Below, one piece after another: positions 8,162 to 63,847 of a DNA stretch of 64,000 bases; position 1 is the first letter of the stretch, and each line of letters begins with the position of its first letter. A model generated the notes under the pieces. That model was not told where the DNA came from and ran no database searches. It saw only the letters and a list, made by a program, of their open reading frames with translations. The stretch is from Candidatus Portnoybacteria bacterium RIFCSPLOWO2_01_FULL_43_11 (GTDB taxonomy: Bacteria; Patescibacteriota; Minisyncoccia; Portnoybacterales; UBA2143). The position numbers were made by a program, and so were the translations under genes. The stretch lies in assembly GCA_001819605.1 (NCBI GenBank), contig MHNE01000008.1, positions 13,054-77,053 of the forward strand. Reading direction: 5' to 3'.

Positions 8162-8224
8162 GATAATAAAAAAGCGGGCCTTTATAGCCCCAAAAAGAAA
8201 AAAGGAACTGTAGAGAGTTTAGCG

Positions 8225-8520
8225 ATTATGGATGTCTATTAGGACATCCGGCTTTTCGCTACAGTTCCTGTTATTGAAATCGCAGAGGAGGCCGCTGGGC
8301 CTAGTGGATGGTGGTAAGCCGGGCGGAGGGGCCCGTACGGCCACTCTGCGATTTCGTTTTTTTTCGGCGGAGACTGCGCTTAATTATTATAGGTTAACCT
8401 GCGCTTTTCGGATAACCTACACTCAGCACAGGCCGCAGTCCCCCTCTCAAAGAACTAGGTGCCTAACTATTGCCATTATATCCATTCAAAAAACTATGTC
8501 AAGACCCTCCTCTTTTATTT
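8225..8520 (+). ncRNA. GC-rich highly structured intergenic segment (candidate ncRNA or structured repeat); identity unresolved
   Basis: Long hairpin AAATCGCAGAGG...GGCCG...GGGCC...GGCCC...CGGCC...CTCTGCGATTT followed by a T-run. Additional hairpins GGATGTCtattaGGACATCC and GGAGCattaactGCTCC. About 60% GC in an AT-rich genome, with no credible ORF. Confidence 0.35.
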
Positions 8521-23819: not shown

Positions 23820-23892
23820 CGCGGGGTGGAGCAATTGGAAGCTCGCTGGGCCCATAACCCAGAGGTTGCCGGTTCGAGTCCGGCCCCCGCAA
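23820..23892 (+). tRNA. tRNA-Met(CAU), initiator-like
   Basis: Cloverleaf with anticodon loop CCCATAA, three consecutive G:C pairs in the anticodon stem, a C1:A72 mismatch, and T-loop GGTTCGAGTCC. No CCA encoded. Confidence 0.8.
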
Positions 23893-23914
23893 CATAAATT
23901 TTTCGCTTTACTAC

Positions 23915-23991
23915 GCCGGGGTAGCTCAACTGGTTAGAGCGTCTGACTCATAAGCAGAAGGTTGTGGGTTCGAGCCCCACCCCCGGTACCA
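23915..23991 (+). tRNA. tRNA-Met(CAU), elongator (or Ile2/lysidine type)
   Basis: GCCGGGGTAGCTCAACTGGTTAGAGC..CTCATAA..GGGTTCGAGCCCCAC..ACCA with an encoded CCA. Confidence 0.8.
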
Positions 23992-23992
23992 T

Positions 23993-24068
23993 GGAGCCGT
24001 AGCGTAGCCCGGTTTAACGCATCTGCTTGTCACGCAGAAGATCGTGGGTTCAAATCCCATCGGCTCCG
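23993..24068 (+). tRNA. tRNA-Asp(GUC)
   Basis: GGAGCCGTAGCGTAGCCCGG..anticodon loop TTGTCAC..GGGTTCAAATCCCATCGGCTCCG. Confidence 0.8.
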
Positions 24069-45977: not shown

Positions 45978-46172
45978 CTAAACTTCGATTAGTTTTTGAT
46001 GCTGTTTTAAAAAATTCTTAATCTCTTTTCTTCTCCCGATAACAACAAGCTCTTGATCTCCGGGAGGACCGATTAGATTCACCGCCGGTCCATAGGGAAT
46101 TGAGATATCGGCTGGATTTATTATCTGTCCTTTTTTAACCTTAAAACATTTAACTTTCCTTCGAAAAAACAT
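45978..46172 (-). CDS. small hypothetical protein, possibly AbrB/MazE-like swapped-hairpin fold
   Basis: 64 aa; VKKGQIINPADISIP...GDQELVVIGRRKEI loosely resembles MazE/AbrB. Confidence 0.3.
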   Translation of the reverse strand: MFFRRKVKCFKVKKGQIINPADISIPYGPAVNLIGPPGDQELVVIGRRKEIKNFLKQHQKLIEV

Positions 46173-56473: not shown

Positions 56474-56920
56474 TTATCTTGGCATTATTTCAATCTTTTC
56501 CCCTTTTGCCAAAGTCACAATAGCTTTTTTAAAACCCTTTTTTGATCCCCCTTTCCATCCTTCTGTCCGGCCCAATCTCCGCCTTTTCGGCACAATACGG
56601 ACTATATTTACTTTCTCTACCTTGACTCCGTAAAGACTCTCAACGGCTTTTTGAACTTCGGTTTTATTGGCTCTTGGATAAACTTTAAAAATATATTTGT
56701 TGTTTTCCGCCAAAGCCGCGGCTTTTTCGGTAATGTGGGGCGCTTTAAGAATGCGATAAACATCAGTCTTTGGTTTCCCGATAATTTTTTTTGACTCTAT
56801 TGATTTAGGCTTCTCGTTTGATTTTTCCTCCACTCTTTGAGCTCCTGATTTCTTTGGGTTTTTTTTAAGTTTGCTTAATAAAGACATATTTAGAAATTTA
56901 TTTAAGATATGTTTTCTCAA
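56474..56920 (-). CDS. rplW: 50S ribosomal protein L23 with an N-terminal K-rich extension
   Basis: L23 core (I..P.ITEK....E.N.Y.F.V...A.K.E.K.A.E..Y.VKV..VN). Confidence 0.8.
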   Translation of the reverse strand: MRKHILNKFLNMSLLSKLKKNPKKSGAQRVEEKSNEKPKSIESKKIIGKPKTDVYRILKAPHITEKAAALAENNKYIFKVYPRANKTEVQKAVESLYGVKVEKVNIVRIVPKRRRLGRTEGWKGGSKKGFKKAIVTLAKGEKIEIMPR

Positions 56921-57575
56921 TCACTCCCACCGCCTCCTGCGGCATCAAAAGATATTTAAACGATAAAATATCTACCACATTCAAACTATCAGCTCTGATT
57001 ATTTTTATTTTAGGAATATTTCTCGCGGCTCGAATAATTTTTACATTAGAGGCCGGTAAAACAATTAAAACGCCTGGAGTCCTGCCTTTAGGCAGAGACT
57101 CTTTGTCTTTATTTCTGACTGAAGCTAAGACTCTAAATATATTTCTAAGGATTTCAAACATCTTTTTTGTTTTAGCTTCAACTAATTCCAATTTATCCAA
57201 TAAAACAAACTCTTGATCTCTAACTTTTGACGACAAAGCCATGAAAAGGGCTTTTCTTTTCATTTTTTTATTGATTTTTTTAGAAAATACCCGCTCTTTG
57301 GTCGGCCCAAAAGTTACGCCTCCGCCTTTCCAAATTGGCGAGCGGATTGAACCGTGTCTGGCCCGACCCGTGCCTTTTTGCCGCCACGGCTTTTTCCCGC
57401 CGCCCCTGACTTCGCTTCTGTCTTTAGTATGAGCCAAAACCTGCCTTTTATTTGCCATTTGCGTCACGACGGCCTGATGCACTAAATCATTATTCATTTT
57501 CACGTCAAAAATTTCAGAGGGGAGCTCTGCTTTTCCGATTTCTTTGCCTTGCTGATTGTAAATATTGACAAGCAT
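56898..57575 (-). CDS. rplD: 50S ribosomal protein L4
   Basis: 225 aa; KPWRQKGTGRAR and FGP.PR motifs. Confidence 0.9.
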   Translation of the reverse strand: MLVNIYNQQGKEIGKAELPSEIFDVKMNNDLVHQAVVTQMANKRQVLAHTKDRSEVRGGGKKPWRQKGTGRARHGSIRSPIWKGGGVTFGPTKERVFSKKINKKMKRKALFMALSSKVRDQEFVLLDKLELVEAKTKKMFEILRNIFRVLASVRNKDKESLPKGRTPGVLIVLPASNVKIIRAARNIPKIKIIRADSLNVVDILSFKYLLMPQEAVGVIEKTYLK

Positions 57576-57592
57576 TTTATTGTTGATATAAT
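57565..57592 (+). promoter_or_regulatory. consensus sigma70-type promoter (TTGACA-N16-TATAAT) on the plus strand, inside the 5' end of rplD (coded on the other strand)
   Basis: ttgaca at 57565-57570 and tataat at 57587-57592, read directly. Confidence 0.6.
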
Positions 57593-57641
57593 TTATTTGC
57601 TGTAGTTTAAGTAACTTAATAATTTAAAGGAGGTGTCACTA

Positions 57642-57842
57642 ATGGATTTTGGATCTTCTCTGCTAGACCTATTAAGTGTCTATATCGTAATAGGGGTTCT
57701 CTTTTTAGTTATTGGTTTGCTAATACCTCGAACCCCCCTCTATTCTGACGGAAAACAATTTTGTATGATAATGGGAGGAGTGGTACCGCTTGCTGGAACA
57801 ATCTTTGTGTTATTTATTTTTTTCTTACAATTCTTACAATAG
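57642..57842 (+). CDS. small hydrophobic two-TM protein (about 67 aa) with a strong SD (AAGGAGG)
   Basis: AAGGAGGTG lies 8 nt upstream of the ATG; two predicted TM helices (VYIVIGVLFLVIGLLI; VVPLAGTIFVLFIFFL). Confidence 0.5.
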   Translation: MDFGSSLLDLLSVYIVIGVLFLVIGLLIPRTPLYSDGKQFCMIMGGVVPLAGTIFVLFIFFLQFLQ

Positions 57843-57864
57843 CTTTTAAAGAAAGGAGAAATAA

Positions 57865-58137
57865 ATGAAACAGAAAAACGGAGAAAAAATGTGCCTTACT
57901 TGGTGGAAAAGTGATAAACACTATTCTCTCGATTCATACGACTACGGTGAAGACGATGTCAGAGAAATTATTGGAGAAGTAACCTTAACTAGCGACGCAA
58001 ACAATCTTATCACAGCGTTAATTCTATTAACAGGTATTACAGACGCAGATTGCCAAGAACTTACAGACCCTATCAACGAAATCATTACCAAATACATCAA
58101 GCTAGTCTTAGAAAAACAACATCAGCCTGCTTTTTAA
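57865..58137 (+). CDS. small acidic cytoplasmic protein (90 aa) with a strong SD
   Basis: AAAGGAGAAATAA upstream of the ATG; D/E-rich; lies in the same unit as 57642-57842. Confidence 0.5.
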   Translation: MKQKNGEKMCLTWWKSDKHYSLDSYDYGEDDVREIIGEVTLTSDANNLITALILLTGITDADCQELTDPINEIITKYIKLVLEKQHQPAF

Positions 58138-58159
58138 AATCTATTTCGTCACCATCTCG

Positions 58160-58197
58160 GCACCGGCTCAACGCAGTCGGTGCTTCTCTTTTTTTAT
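58160..58197 (+). terminator. rho-independent terminator (GCACCG-gctcaacgcagt-CGGTGC + TTCTCTTTTTTT)
   Basis: 6-bp GC stem followed by a T-run directly after the 90-aa ORF. Confidence 0.6.
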
Positions 58198-58217
58198 TCT
58201 AAATTTTTAAAGAGTTT

Positions 58218-58862
58218 TTACCCCCTCACTTCCAACAATGTCCCTTTTCTGCCCGGCACCGCGCCTTTGATGGCCAGTAAATTATTTTCTTTATTCACCT
58301 TGATTATTTTCAGACCTTTAATAGTCACTCTGTCGCTCCCCATTCTTCCGGCCATTTTTTTGCCCTTCCAGACCCTTTCCGGAAAAGACGAACCAATTGA
58401 GCCGGGCGCCCGCAAAGTATGCTTTGTTCCGTGGCTGGCTGGCCCGCCTTTAAACCCATGCCGTTTAACCACCCCCTGAAATCCTTTGCCCTTGGAAATT
58501 CCGCTTACTTTTACCTCGTCCCCCTCTTTAAAAACATCAACCGTAATCTCGTCGCCTAATTTTAATTCCGGCTTCTCTATTCTAAACTCTCTTAAATATC
58601 TTGTTCCTGAATTTTGAGATTTGAGATTTGAGATTTGAGATTTTTCAAGATGGCCCTTTAAGGACTTGCTAATATTCTTAAGTTTCTTTTTTCCAAACCC
58701 GACCTGAATTGCTTCGTATCCGTCTTTTTCTTTGGTCTTAATTTGAGTGATAAAGCACGGCCCGGCTTCAACAAGCGTCACTGGAATCACCCGACCATTT
58801 TCATCAAAAACCTGCGACATGCCTAATTTTTTTCCAAGGATAAATTTCATTTTACCAATCAA
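58218..58862 (-). CDS. rplC: 50S ribosomal protein L3
   Basis: KLGMSQVF, conserved L3 sequence; 214 aa. Confidence 0.9.
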   Translation of the reverse strand: MIGKMKFILGKKLGMSQVFDENGRVIPVTLVEAGPCFITQIKTKEKDGYEAIQVGFGKKKLKNISKSLKGHLEKSQISNLKSQNSGTRYLREFRIEKPELKLGDEITVDVFKEGDEVKVSGISKGKGFQGVVKRHGFKGGPASHGTKHTLRAPGSIGSSFPERVWKGKKMAGRMGSDRVTIKGLKIIKVNKENNLLAIKGAVPGRKGTLLEVRG

Positions 58863-60717: not shown

Positions 60718-60969
60718 CTAAAACGGCAAGTCCTCAACCTTGACTTCGTCTTCGGGAACTATTTCTTCCAAATTATTTTCGTTTGGATTTTTGAGTCCGG
60801 CAATATCCTGATTAACTTTTTCTATTTCCGTGCTTTCGGACGGATTATCTTTTTCTAACAAATTCTCGTAATCTTTCATTTTCATCACCACATACATCGG
60901 TTTATCGTTCTCTATTATAATACACTTTCCGCTGTCTTTTTGCAATATATTTTTAATAGTTTTCCACAT
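60718..60969 (-). CDS. small acidic hypothetical protein between fusA and tuf, with weak Phd/YefM-antitoxin-like N-terminus
   Basis: 83 aa; KCIIIENDKPMYVVMKMKDYENLLE resembles the YefM beta-alpha pattern; start lies 2 nt after the fusA stop. Confidence 0.35.
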   Translation of the reverse strand: MWKTIKNILQKDSGKCIIIENDKPMYVVMKMKDYENLLEKDNPSESTEIEKVNQDIAGLKNPNENNLEEIVPEDEVKVEDLPF

Positions 60970-63273: not shown

Positions 63274-63639
63274 TTACAGAATTTTAACCACGCCTTCTCG
63301 AATAATTATCAATTTGTCCTCTAATTTCTTCAATTTAAACTTCTTTAGAAAAGGAATTAAATAACGAATAACATTCTGCGGAGATTGATCTCTTAATCTT
63401 AATAAAATAACGCCTCTGTGTTTCTGATGAAATTGATGGATAAGATTTCCAAAATCTTTATCATGAGTAATAATAATCCGTTTTTGTTTCTCGGCCAATT
63501 TCAAAATTTCTTCGTCATTCATAGCGTAAAATTTATTCTCTCCGATACCCAAAACATCAAAACCTTTGTCTCTTAGGGTTTTAATAACTATCGGAGCGAT
63601 ATTTTCGTCAGCTATAAAACCCTTCATAAAATCAAGCAA
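63274..63639 (-). CDS. DUF5615 (Mut7-C/PIN-like) putative toxin
   Basis: FIADENIAP.VIK.LR.KGFDV...D.EIL.LA..QKRIIITHDKDFGNL......H.GVILLRL matches the DUF5615 consensus pattern. Confidence 0.6.
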   Translation of the reverse strand: MLDFMKGFIADENIAPIVIKTLRDKGFDVLGIGENKFYAMNDEEILKLAEKQKRIIITHDKDFGNLIHQFHQKHRGVILLRLRDQSPQNVIRYLIPFLKKFKLKKLEDKLIIIREGVVKIL

Positions 63640-63847
63640 AAACTAATTCTTCACGCTTGACTGTCTTGGCCGCGTAATCAATGGCCGCTAAAACATCGGC
63701 TTTTTTAAGACGGGGATATTCCTCGACGATTTCTTCAACGGTCATTCCAGAAGCCAAAAGCTCCAATATAAACTCAACGGAAATGCGAGTTCCTTTTATA
63801 ATCGGTTTGCCGCCAAATATTTTTTTATTGTAAGTAATGCGGTTCAT
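63632..63847 (-). CDS. DUF433 putative antitoxin
   Basis: GGKPIIKGTRISVEFILELLASGMTVEEIVEEYPRLKKADVLAAIDYAA matches the DUF433 consensus pattern; overlaps the downstream gene by 8 nt. Confidence 0.6.
   Translation of the reverse strand: MNRITYNKKIFGGKPIIKGTRISVEFILELLASGMTVEEIVEEYPRLKKADVLAAIDYAAKTVKREELVFA

Follow-up and report, generated by a model that had tools for sequence, protein, structure and literature searches.

A candidate antisense small-protein unit nested between rplC and rplD in the S10 operon of a Candidatus Portnoybacteria genome

The rplC–rplD junction

A stretch of 64,000 nucleotides from contig MHNE01000008.1, referred to here as the window, was analysed from the metagenome-assembled genome (MAG) RIFCSPLOWO2_01_FULL of an uncultured groundwater Candidatus Portnoybacteria (Parcubacteria, candidate phyla radiation, CPR). 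Its minus strand carries the canonical str/S10 array of rpsG, fusA, tuf, rpsJ, rplC, rplD, rplW, rplB and onward, and Pfam families on contigs of the same population give the order tuf-rpsJ-rplC-rplD-rplW-rplB-rpsS-rplV-rpsC-rplP on a single strand. Between rplC (uL3) and rplD (uL4), on the opposite strand, lies a unit made up of a predicted promoter, two small open reading frames (ORF1 and ORF2), each led by a Shine–Dalgarno (SD) sequence, and a predicted intrinsic terminator. An earlier note on this DNA had described such a self-contained plus-strand unit nested antisense in the S10 operon, and both gene boundaries and all four elements between them are found where it placed them:

56898 to 57575, minus strand: rplD (uL4), the downstream flank; Pfam Ribosomal_L4, E 3.8e-65
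57565 to 57592, plus strand: predicted sigma-70 promoter, TTGACA-N16-(TG)TATAAT; 12/12 consensus match with a TG extension, inferred start at about 57599
57627 to 57633, plus strand: Shine–Dalgarno sequence of ORF1, AAGGAGG, 8 nt ahead of the ATG at 57642
57642 to 57842, plus strand: ORF1, 66 amino acids (aa), two hydrophobic segments by Kyte–Doolittle hydropathy
57853 to 57858, plus strand: Shine–Dalgarno sequence of ORF2, AAGGAG, 6 nt ahead of the ATG at 57865
57865 to 58137, plus strand: ORF2, a mildly acidic, predicted soluble protein of 90 aa, founding member of a three-lineage orphan family
58159 to 58198, plus strand: predicted intrinsic terminator with a 10-bp GC-rich stem (58159–58184), a 6-nt loop and a T run; −16.4 kcal/mol, z −5.6
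58218 to 58862, minus strand: rplC (uL3), the upstream flank; Pfam Ribosomal_L3, E 2.3e-17

The spacer that houses the unit is 642 bp long, compared with a median of 18 bp across 79 related Patescibacteria loci (80 genome loci were fetched around uL4 homologues, and the uL3–uL4 gap was measured in 79). A gap of at least 200 bp occurs in just seven of these 79 relatives; most of the junctions are tight, and the expectation that rplC and rplD normally adjoin each other is upheld. Among 24 population contigs read, the seven on which the place was returned all have the same arrangement, and the five of these that compare without indels are identical to the window across the module. The module is clonal within the population and offers no polymorphism usable for dN/dS. 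Both ORFs are present among the 'hypothetical protein' entries of the host MAG at NCBI.

Since the −35 hexamer sits within rplD codons 2–4, the unit would be transcribed away from rplD and toward the 3′ end of rplC, ending 21 nt short of the rplC stop codon. The earlier description of transcription running convergently into rplD was mistaken.

Predicted promoter, terminator and insulation of the unit

The promoter had been called a textbook one lying partly within rplD codons, and it does match the consensus at all 12 positions, with the antisense −35 hexamer overlapping rplD codons 2–4 (CTT GTC AAT). Matches of 12/12 number one in a scan of 10 kb and two in the full 64 kb on both strands; the chance expectation, a composition-based estimate, is about 0.09. 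In the related locus L088, TTGACA-N16-TATAAT occurs at the identical position relative to the uL4 start, and related versions of the promoter are found in L041 and L051.

The second perfect TTGACA-N16-TATAAT of the window (8502–8475, minus strand) lies upstream of a GC-rich stretch of about 270 nt (8195–8502, minus strand). This stretch ends in a hairpin and a T run, contains neither an ORF nor an SD, and has a minimum free energy of −108 kcal/mol (z −7.3). It has no Rfam match even at E ≤ 1 and is a candidate structured non-coding RNA.

A terminator with a GC stem and a T run had been expected at 58160–58197 and was found at 58159–58198. Its hairpin is predicted to fold at −16.4 kcal/mol in plus-strand RNA versus −12.1 kcal/mol in minus-strand RNA, and the minus strand has no T run. 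In the sister species Portnoybacteria RIFCSPHIGHO2_02_FULL_39_12 (L008; uL4 79% and uL3 81% identical to the window), the terminator hairpin is that of the window with a compensatory A-U to G-C change and the G.U wobble kept. The terminator stem of a further relative, L010, matches both, G.U wobble included. The wobble and the T run suggest that the hairpin functions on the strand of the antisense unit. As the terminator would thus act one way, transcription in the sense direction would be expected to continue past it from rplC into rplD. Furthermore, because the promoter abuts or overlaps the rplD start and the terminator precedes rplC by 21 nt, the antisense RNA is predicted to cover the spacer alone. 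Both translation-initiation regions of the unit are unstructured by prediction, and Rfam gave no meaningful match in the spacer on either strand.

Shine–Dalgarno sequences in an SD-poor genome

Native genes had been said to lack SD sequences almost without exception, and the counts agree. In the window, an SD-like 5-mer close to an early start is found for 6 of 60 long ORFs and is missing from the other 54, and a 6-mer SD at the correct spacing before an ATG-initiated ORF is very rare there. Among ribosomal protein (r-protein) and tuf starts in the 80 related loci, a 5-mer SD precedes 13 of 406 (~3%) and a 6-mer precedes 4. Tsurumaki et al. (PMC9297842) detected the anti-SD motif in just 48% of Parcubacteria 16S rRNAs. 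The presence of strong SDs in otherwise SD-poor genomes suggests that the mini-genes may fall under a separate translational regime.

One other SD-led orphan was noted in the window, a 64-aa ORF at 45978–46172 (minus strand) with AGGAGG 8 nt ahead of an ATG. It lies in an ordinary intergenic gap, has no Pfam match and has no promoter-like site within the 800 bp scanned.

ORF1, a two-segment hydrophobic peptide

The hydrophobic segments of ORF1 span residues ~8–28 and ~40–64 by Kyte–Doolittle hydropathy. The two transmembrane (TM) segments and the AAGGAGG of the earlier description are therefore borne out, while its length is 66 aa rather than 67. The peptide ends in FFLQFLQ, with no charged tail, and would be nothing more than a two-TM hairpin. 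An ATG-initiated ORF as long as ORF1 arose in 1 of 1000 segment shuffles, and T occupies codon position 2 in 58% of its codons. The translation-initiation region (57599–57670) is predicted to fold at −7.6 kcal/mol, more weakly than its shuffles (z +1.5).

A word-indexed search of 5.8e9 protein clusters for homologues of ORF1 returned only the self match. Homology with the TM peptide of L051, which likewise starts MDF, was considered and rejected (Smith–Waterman z 0.07). ORF1 is absent from L008 and L088, and in alignment it forms an extra block of ~250 nt that follows the promoter and precedes the ribosome-binding site of ORF2. ORF1 appears from this comparison to be a lineage-specific addition at that position.

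ORF2 and its orphan family

ORF2 has a pI of 4.6, with 16 acidic versus 9 basic residues and a net charge of about −7. The 90-aa ORF and its AAGGAG stand as first described, but the protein is moderately rather than highly acidic. Among 1.84e9 representatives searched exhaustively with HMMER, one homologue was found, the 95-aa protein P0005 (43% identity, E 1.4e-9). The other four matches in this search are long acidic repeat proteins aligned over many weak stretches, and these were regarded as compositional. Similarly, a word-indexed search of the 5.8e9 protein clusters with an ORF2 profile returned, besides ORF2 itself, P0005 and the L008 protein.

P0005 is encoded on a single 1-kb contig, L088, which reads from the uL4 start through TTGACA-N16-TATAAT over uL4 codons, AAGGAGG and the 95-aa gene to the 3′ end of uL3. 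In L008 the uL3–uL4 gap is 383 bp and holds an antisense 74-aa ORF with AAGGAG. The encoded protein is ~29% identical to ORF2 of the window (pairwise BLASTP E 0.001; Smith–Waterman z 5.8) and scores z 10–12 against P0005; across the family, the Smith–Waterman z values are 25, 10 and 5.8. The window, L088 and L008 thus each have a homologous protein of 74–95 aa encoded antisense between rplC and rplD, and the family has the C-terminal motif D-x-I-[ND]-E-I-[IV]-x-x-[CY]-I. The homologue is also present in L089 and L111, which go with L008, in the same slot and orientation and with the same terminator hairpin.

Every member found sits antisense in the rplC/rplD slot, and none was found in another genomic context. 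A cluster profile search, a metagenome protein-pattern scan and a degenerate DNA pattern identified no members beyond the three lineages: the protein-pattern scan found nothing, and the DNA pattern returned 26 metagenome loci, of which just two were real, both from the L008 species. ORFs at the same junction in L049 and L041 were compared with ORF2 by Smith–Waterman alignment and rejected as homologues.

The earlier note proposed coding conservation as a test of the ORFs, and ORF2 shows it. Across the three ORF2 genes, pN/pS by the Nei–Gojobori method is 0.46–0.61, with synonymous sites saturated. As these values lie below 1, ORF2 is probably a real coding gene under purifying selection, although a fast-evolving one. 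It was also argued that homologues conserved here throughout orthologous genomes would point to an ordinary, lineage-specific gene pair. Homologues of ORF2 do occupy the site in a few lineages, but most relatives have a tight junction.

In a rough neighbour-joining tree of uL3 plus uL4, L008 is the sister of the window; L088 falls in another clade, together with L051, and many tight-junction genomes lie between the two pairs. This patchy spread suggests that the content of the slot was repeatedly lost, or was moved by recombination through the conserved flanks. In the preferred reading, ORF2 is the older core of the unit, and it is kept, or exchanged by recombination through conserved flanks, in the slot of at least three species-level lineages. 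As judged by the searches above, ORF1 and ORF2 are both orphans, and ORF2 is the first described member of a new, conserved, three-lineage orphan family.

An AlphaFold2 (AF2) model of ORF2 from the three-sequence alignment has moderate confidence (pLDDT 72, pTM 0.54) and predicts a beta3-alpha2 arrangement, with strands at residues 8–14, 19–23 and 33–40 and helices at 43–55 and 60–85. The single-sequence model (pLDDT 45) was useless. The entry P0003 (SRR3989344) is a population variant of ORF2 carrying Y77C, and cysteine is the residue of the other two family members at that position. In P0003 the ORF2 stop codon is also changed to Lys, giving a 204-aa read-through call across the terminator.

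Antisense cassettes in related Patescibacteria

Small antisense orphan ORFs, mostly encoding TM peptides and unrelated to one another, also occur at the S10/L3, L3/L4, L2/S19 and S19/L22 junctions of relatives. At L3/L4, cassettes with unrelated cargo are found in four loci. L051 has TTGACA-N17-TATACT over the uL4 start, AAGGAGG, a 58-aa two-TM peptide and a strong terminator; L041 has TTGCCA-N17-TATGAT, AAGGAGG, a 63-aa ORF and a terminator; L049 has AAGGAGG, an 82-aa ORF and a terminator; and L010 has a 180-aa low-complexity TM protein and a terminator. When L010 was aligned with L009, which has no cassette, the C-terminal tails of uL3 proved divergent, and the alignment leaves the ends of the insertion undefined.

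The L2/S19 cassettes of L036, L039, L043 and L050 carry apparently unrelated TM ORFs of 25, 100, 77 and 66 aa, respectively. The S19 start ATGTCAAG here reads TTGACA on the antisense strand, and it is present in 4/4 cassette genomes compared with 11/70 others. L036, L039 and L043 have a common promoter (TTGACA/TATTAT) and a common terminator (CTCGCGA..TCGCGAG), and the terminator of L050 differs. At S19/L22, L016 combines a 12/12 promoter with a 155-aa TM protein, and L053 has an antisense cassette at S10/L3. In the L3/L4 and L2/S19 cases that were read, TTGACA extends over the initial codons of the r-protein gene downstream. The cassettes of L008, L088, L041, L049 and L053 carry soluble proteins only.

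In gaps of at least 200 bp, nine antisense ORFs led by an SD of 5 nt or more were detected. Every one of them has a terminator (−9 to −20 kcal/mol) and a 9–12/12 promoter, whereas the sense-strand candidates in such gaps have no terminator. Nine other cassette ORFs gave nothing significant in Pfam, PHROGs, PADLOC or NCBIfam.

Two sense inserts in the uL3/uL4 gap, neither with a terminator, were read by eye. That of L027 (2034–4000) holds a nucleotidyltransferase with a HEPN/DUF86-like partner and an HD-domain protein, and that of L044 (1716–2466) holds an HD-domain protein. Palindromes resembling miniature inverted-repeat transposable elements (MITEs) separate the antisense cassette from the uL3 stop codon in L088 (470–640) and L051 (3490–3600), with the sequences GTCATTGCGAG...CTCGCAATGAC and GTCATTCC...GGAATGAC. 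The junction therefore appears to accept small mobile repeats as well.

Other features of the window

Inside the uL3 coding sequence, the heptanucleotide TGAGATT is repeated four times in tandem (58615–58642, minus strand), in the region encoding ...KSQISNLKSQNS...; slippage by a single unit would put the essential rplC out of frame. Further along the r-protein supercluster, a DUF433 and DUF5615 (PIN-like/Mut7-C) pair, a module of toxin–antitoxin (TA) type, forms a sense-strand insert between rpsG and fusA (63277–63847, minus strand). Between fusA and tuf, an 83-aa ORF on the operon strand (60718–60969, minus strand) has a sub-threshold match to Phd/YefM-like antitoxins (E 0.003), and L089, from the sister species, has an 85-aa ORF at the same position. 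The sole matches in the window at the Rfam gathering threshold form a cluster of three tRNAs (23820–24068, plus strand).

Interpretation and alternative explanations

With somewhat more belief than doubt, the unit is read here as a group of real, insulated small-protein genes, nested antisense in the operon and maintained vertically or by recombination. A gene with a strong terminator would be tolerated inside an essential polycistron in the antisense orientation only. Such antisense-only tolerance could explain both the orientation bias of the cassettes and the lack of terminators in sense inserts.

A specific mechanism of anti-correlated expression through interference is proposed more tentatively, with doubt outweighing belief. 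The polymerase footprint of the antisense promoter would lie over the rplD start, and the promoter would fire head-on against RNA polymerase transcribing the r-protein genes. It would be occluded while the S10 operon is active and free when the operon is inactive. Most synthesis of the small proteins would then fall in phases of low S10 transcription, such as slow growth or stress, and antisense transcription may in return damp rplD and the genes downstream of it.

Several points weigh against this account. The promoter, SD and terminator are predicted solely from matches to consensus. The interference model is pure inference, and an RNA confined to the spacer could equally mean that selection minimises the interaction. 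ORF1 is without any comparative support. Just three lineages make up the ORF2 family, and a 1-kb contig is all that represents one of them. In two clades (window/L008/L010 and L036/L039/L043), the frame of promoter and terminator is better conserved than the enclosed ORF, and this fits a function at the level of RNA or transcription at least as well. Finally, the survey for cassettes was restricted to r-protein loci, which bears on any claim that they are enriched there.

If function resides in transcription, the antisense transcription itself would be what is selected: an excludon-like cis-regulator that throttles or uncouples rplD and the downstream genes by blocking the polymerase, through head-on collisions and by forming an RNA duplex across the L3–L4 spacer that RNase III would target. 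The ORFs would be secondary, either keeping the RNA translated and Rho-resistant or representing young de novo genes. The excludon concept is described (PMC7154746, PMC12288877), and in silico the promoter and terminator define a transcript antisense to the neighbouring operon. The window, L008 and L010 have the GGCGCCGG...TCGGCGCC hairpin in common with differing ORFs; L036, L039 and L043 likewise combine a common promoter and terminator with ORFs of 25, 100 and 77 aa; and the −35 hexamer overlaps the downstream r-protein start in the L3/L4 and L2/S19 cases read. This explanation is nevertheless unlikely. The near-perfect, well-spaced SDs of cassettes in SD-poor genomes argue that translation is selected, ORF2 is conserved as a protein (pN/pS below 1), and the predicted RNA starts outside rplD and ends before rplC, overlapping no coding sequence. 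A type I-like arrangement, in which the TM peptides act as membrane toxins and the complementary, abundant S10 transcript restrains their mRNA, is less probable again. The toxin would be made when ribosome synthesis stops, through starvation or phage shut-off, leading to dormancy or abortive infection. Most of the cargo is indeed small and hydrophobic (ORF1 of the window, L051, L043, L050, L036, L039, L016 and L010), the promoters and SDs are strong, and the operon to which the cassettes lie antisense is in every case very highly transcribed. The peptides, however, have 58–155 aa and at least two TM segments, against the usual type I pattern of fewer than 60 aa and a single TM; ORF1 itself is hydrophobic, with 66 aa and two hydrophobic segments. 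No promoter for a dedicated antisense small RNA (sRNA) was found: the minus strand has no promoter-like site of at least 9/12 inside 57576–58217, and Rfam gave no match. The only RNA antisense to the unit would be the r-protein polycistron. The 5′ untranslated region (UTR; −7.6 kcal/mol, z +1.5) leaves the SD unsequestered, and the five soluble-only cassettes fall outside the scheme. A broader and unlikely proposal takes the cassettes as an undescribed class of SD-dependent antisense mini-genes acting as a switch coupled to ribosome synthesis in the r-protein operons of Patescibacteria. Here the mini-gene promoter and the operon polymerase would be mutually exclusive, peptides and acidic proteins would be made when r-protein transcription collapses, and these products would impose or stabilise growth arrest, or cut short a phage infection. 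In a variant of this proposal, ORF2 would act specifically on uL4 or uL3, next to whose genes it lies, as an acidic binding partner or regulator.

The earlier note had suggested a toxin/immunity, holin-like or bacteriocin/immunity pair, a group to which a type II-like TA module may be added, with ORF1 as the membrane-damaging component and ORF2 as its acidic neutraliser. A small membrane peptide and a small acidic protein are predicted to be co-transcribed, and the DUF433/DUF5615 pair and the weakly Phd-like 83-aa ORF indicate that addiction-type modules lodge in the r-protein supercluster. The suggestion nonetheless fares poorly and is distinctly improbable. ORF1 and ORF2 gave nothing significant in Pfam, PHROGs, PADLOC or NCBIfam, no toxin or antitoxin domain or defence profile was recognised, a fold search gave no match, and the sole match in a sequence profile search of the PDB was a designed helical bundle (E 0.002). 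The partners are unlinked: ORF2 stands without a TM gene in L008/L089/L111 and L088, which indicates that the pair is not obligate, and a non-homologous TM peptide stands without ORF2 in L051. Neighbouring gene calls include no lysin, bacteriocin precursor or transporter, and ORF1 differs from a class II holin (two TM segments, a charged C-terminal tail and an adjacent endolysin) in lacking the tail, in having r-protein genes as neighbours and in giving no PHROG match. Recent acquisition of foreign or mobile DNA, such as phage, plasmid, insertion sequence or MITE cargo landing between rplC and rplD, had also been suspected; expression signals that resemble those of Escherichia coli rather than those of native genes, the MITE-like palindromes adjoining cassettes in L088 and L051, and the patchy distribution on the uL3 plus uL4 tree would fit it. 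This is very improbable, and the description of the module as foreign is not sustained. GC is 0.36 for ORF1 and 0.37 for ORF2 versus 0.39 ± 0.04 for host genes (within 1 SD), and GC3 is 0.31 and 0.35 versus 0.38 ± 0.05 (within ~1.3 SD). No meaningful terminal direct or inverted repeats or target-site duplications flank the module, searches of phage, viral-contig and plasmid collections with it gave no match, and the repeats, recombinase and mobile homology of a mobile element or prophage remnant were not found. The ORF2 family is known from no other context, and ORF2 and the terminator are common to the sister species. That the ORFs are non-functional, arising by chance in an expanded AT-rich spacer, also has very little probability. 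ORF1 is confined to one clonal population, as that explanation would have it, but its length is matched in 1/1000 shuffles and its codon-position bias is strong; ORF2 appears to be under purifying selection; and both ORFs have a strong, well-spaced SD, otherwise very rare.

Significance and comparison with known systems

Few gene arrays in biology are as conserved as the S10 operon, and protein genes nested backward within it are unusual; in the literature searched, no account was found of antisense protein-coding mini-genes within the r-protein operons of CPR bacteria. Recurrence at several junctions, together with SD use, points to a distinct class of small-protein expression in CPR, possibly with a built-in link between ribosome production and the expression of small proteins, often membrane peptides. 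About a dozen concrete loci and a new family, that of ORF2, are offered for study. They may serve as a natural system in which autonomous genes are tolerated in essential operons through antisense orientation and a one-way terminator, and in which small genes turn over within a conserved promoter/terminator frame. Were the proteins ordinary lineage-specific accessories, the arrangement would still provide a useful annotation rule for CPR genomes. The loci are thus of interest for CPR genomics, the evolution of ribosomal operons and small proteins.

Several known systems resemble the unit in part. Class II holins and other small two-TM proteins are of similar size to ORF1 (~60–95 aa) and have two hydrophobic helices; unlike class II holins, ORF1 lacks a charged C-terminal domain, has neither an endolysin gene nor phage genes next to it and matches no family. 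Modules that hitch-hike in r-protein operons, such as the DUF433/DUF5615 pair between rpsG and fusA, are likewise small two-gene units at str/S10 junctions. Modules of that type lie on the sense strand, have no terminator of their own and are recognisable by Pfam, whereas the unit of the window is antisense, autonomous and orphan. In Flavobacteriia, rpsU is a strong-SD gene although the anti-SD is normally occluded. The SD-led mini-genes resemble it as genes that retain a strong SD where few others do, a pattern suggestive of translation under special rules; they are different genes in a different lineage.

Classical type I toxins usually have fewer than 60 aa and one TM segment. In type I TA loci such as Hok/Sok, TisB/IstR-1, Fst, TxpA/RatA and AapA/IsoA, the mRNA of a hydrophobic peptide is complementary to an RNA from the opposite strand, as would be the case for ORF1. 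Unlike the toxins of these loci, ORF1 is longer (66 aa), has two TM segments, has no dedicated sRNA that could be found and has an exposed SD. Furthermore, a second, soluble gene is predicted to be co-transcribed with it, and the cognate cassettes of relatives have no TM gene.

The arrangement also resembles excludons, described in Listeria and others (PMC7154746, PMC12288877), where the mRNA of one gene set is antisense to a neighbouring operon and where interference, RNase III processing and mutually exclusive expression are expected. The unit of the window, known from sequence, differs in being nested inside an operon rather than placed between divergent neighbours. It would overlap the intercistronic spacer alone, tightly bounded by its own terminator. 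Unlike excludon-type units, the arrangement also recurs among relatives with turnover of its cargo.

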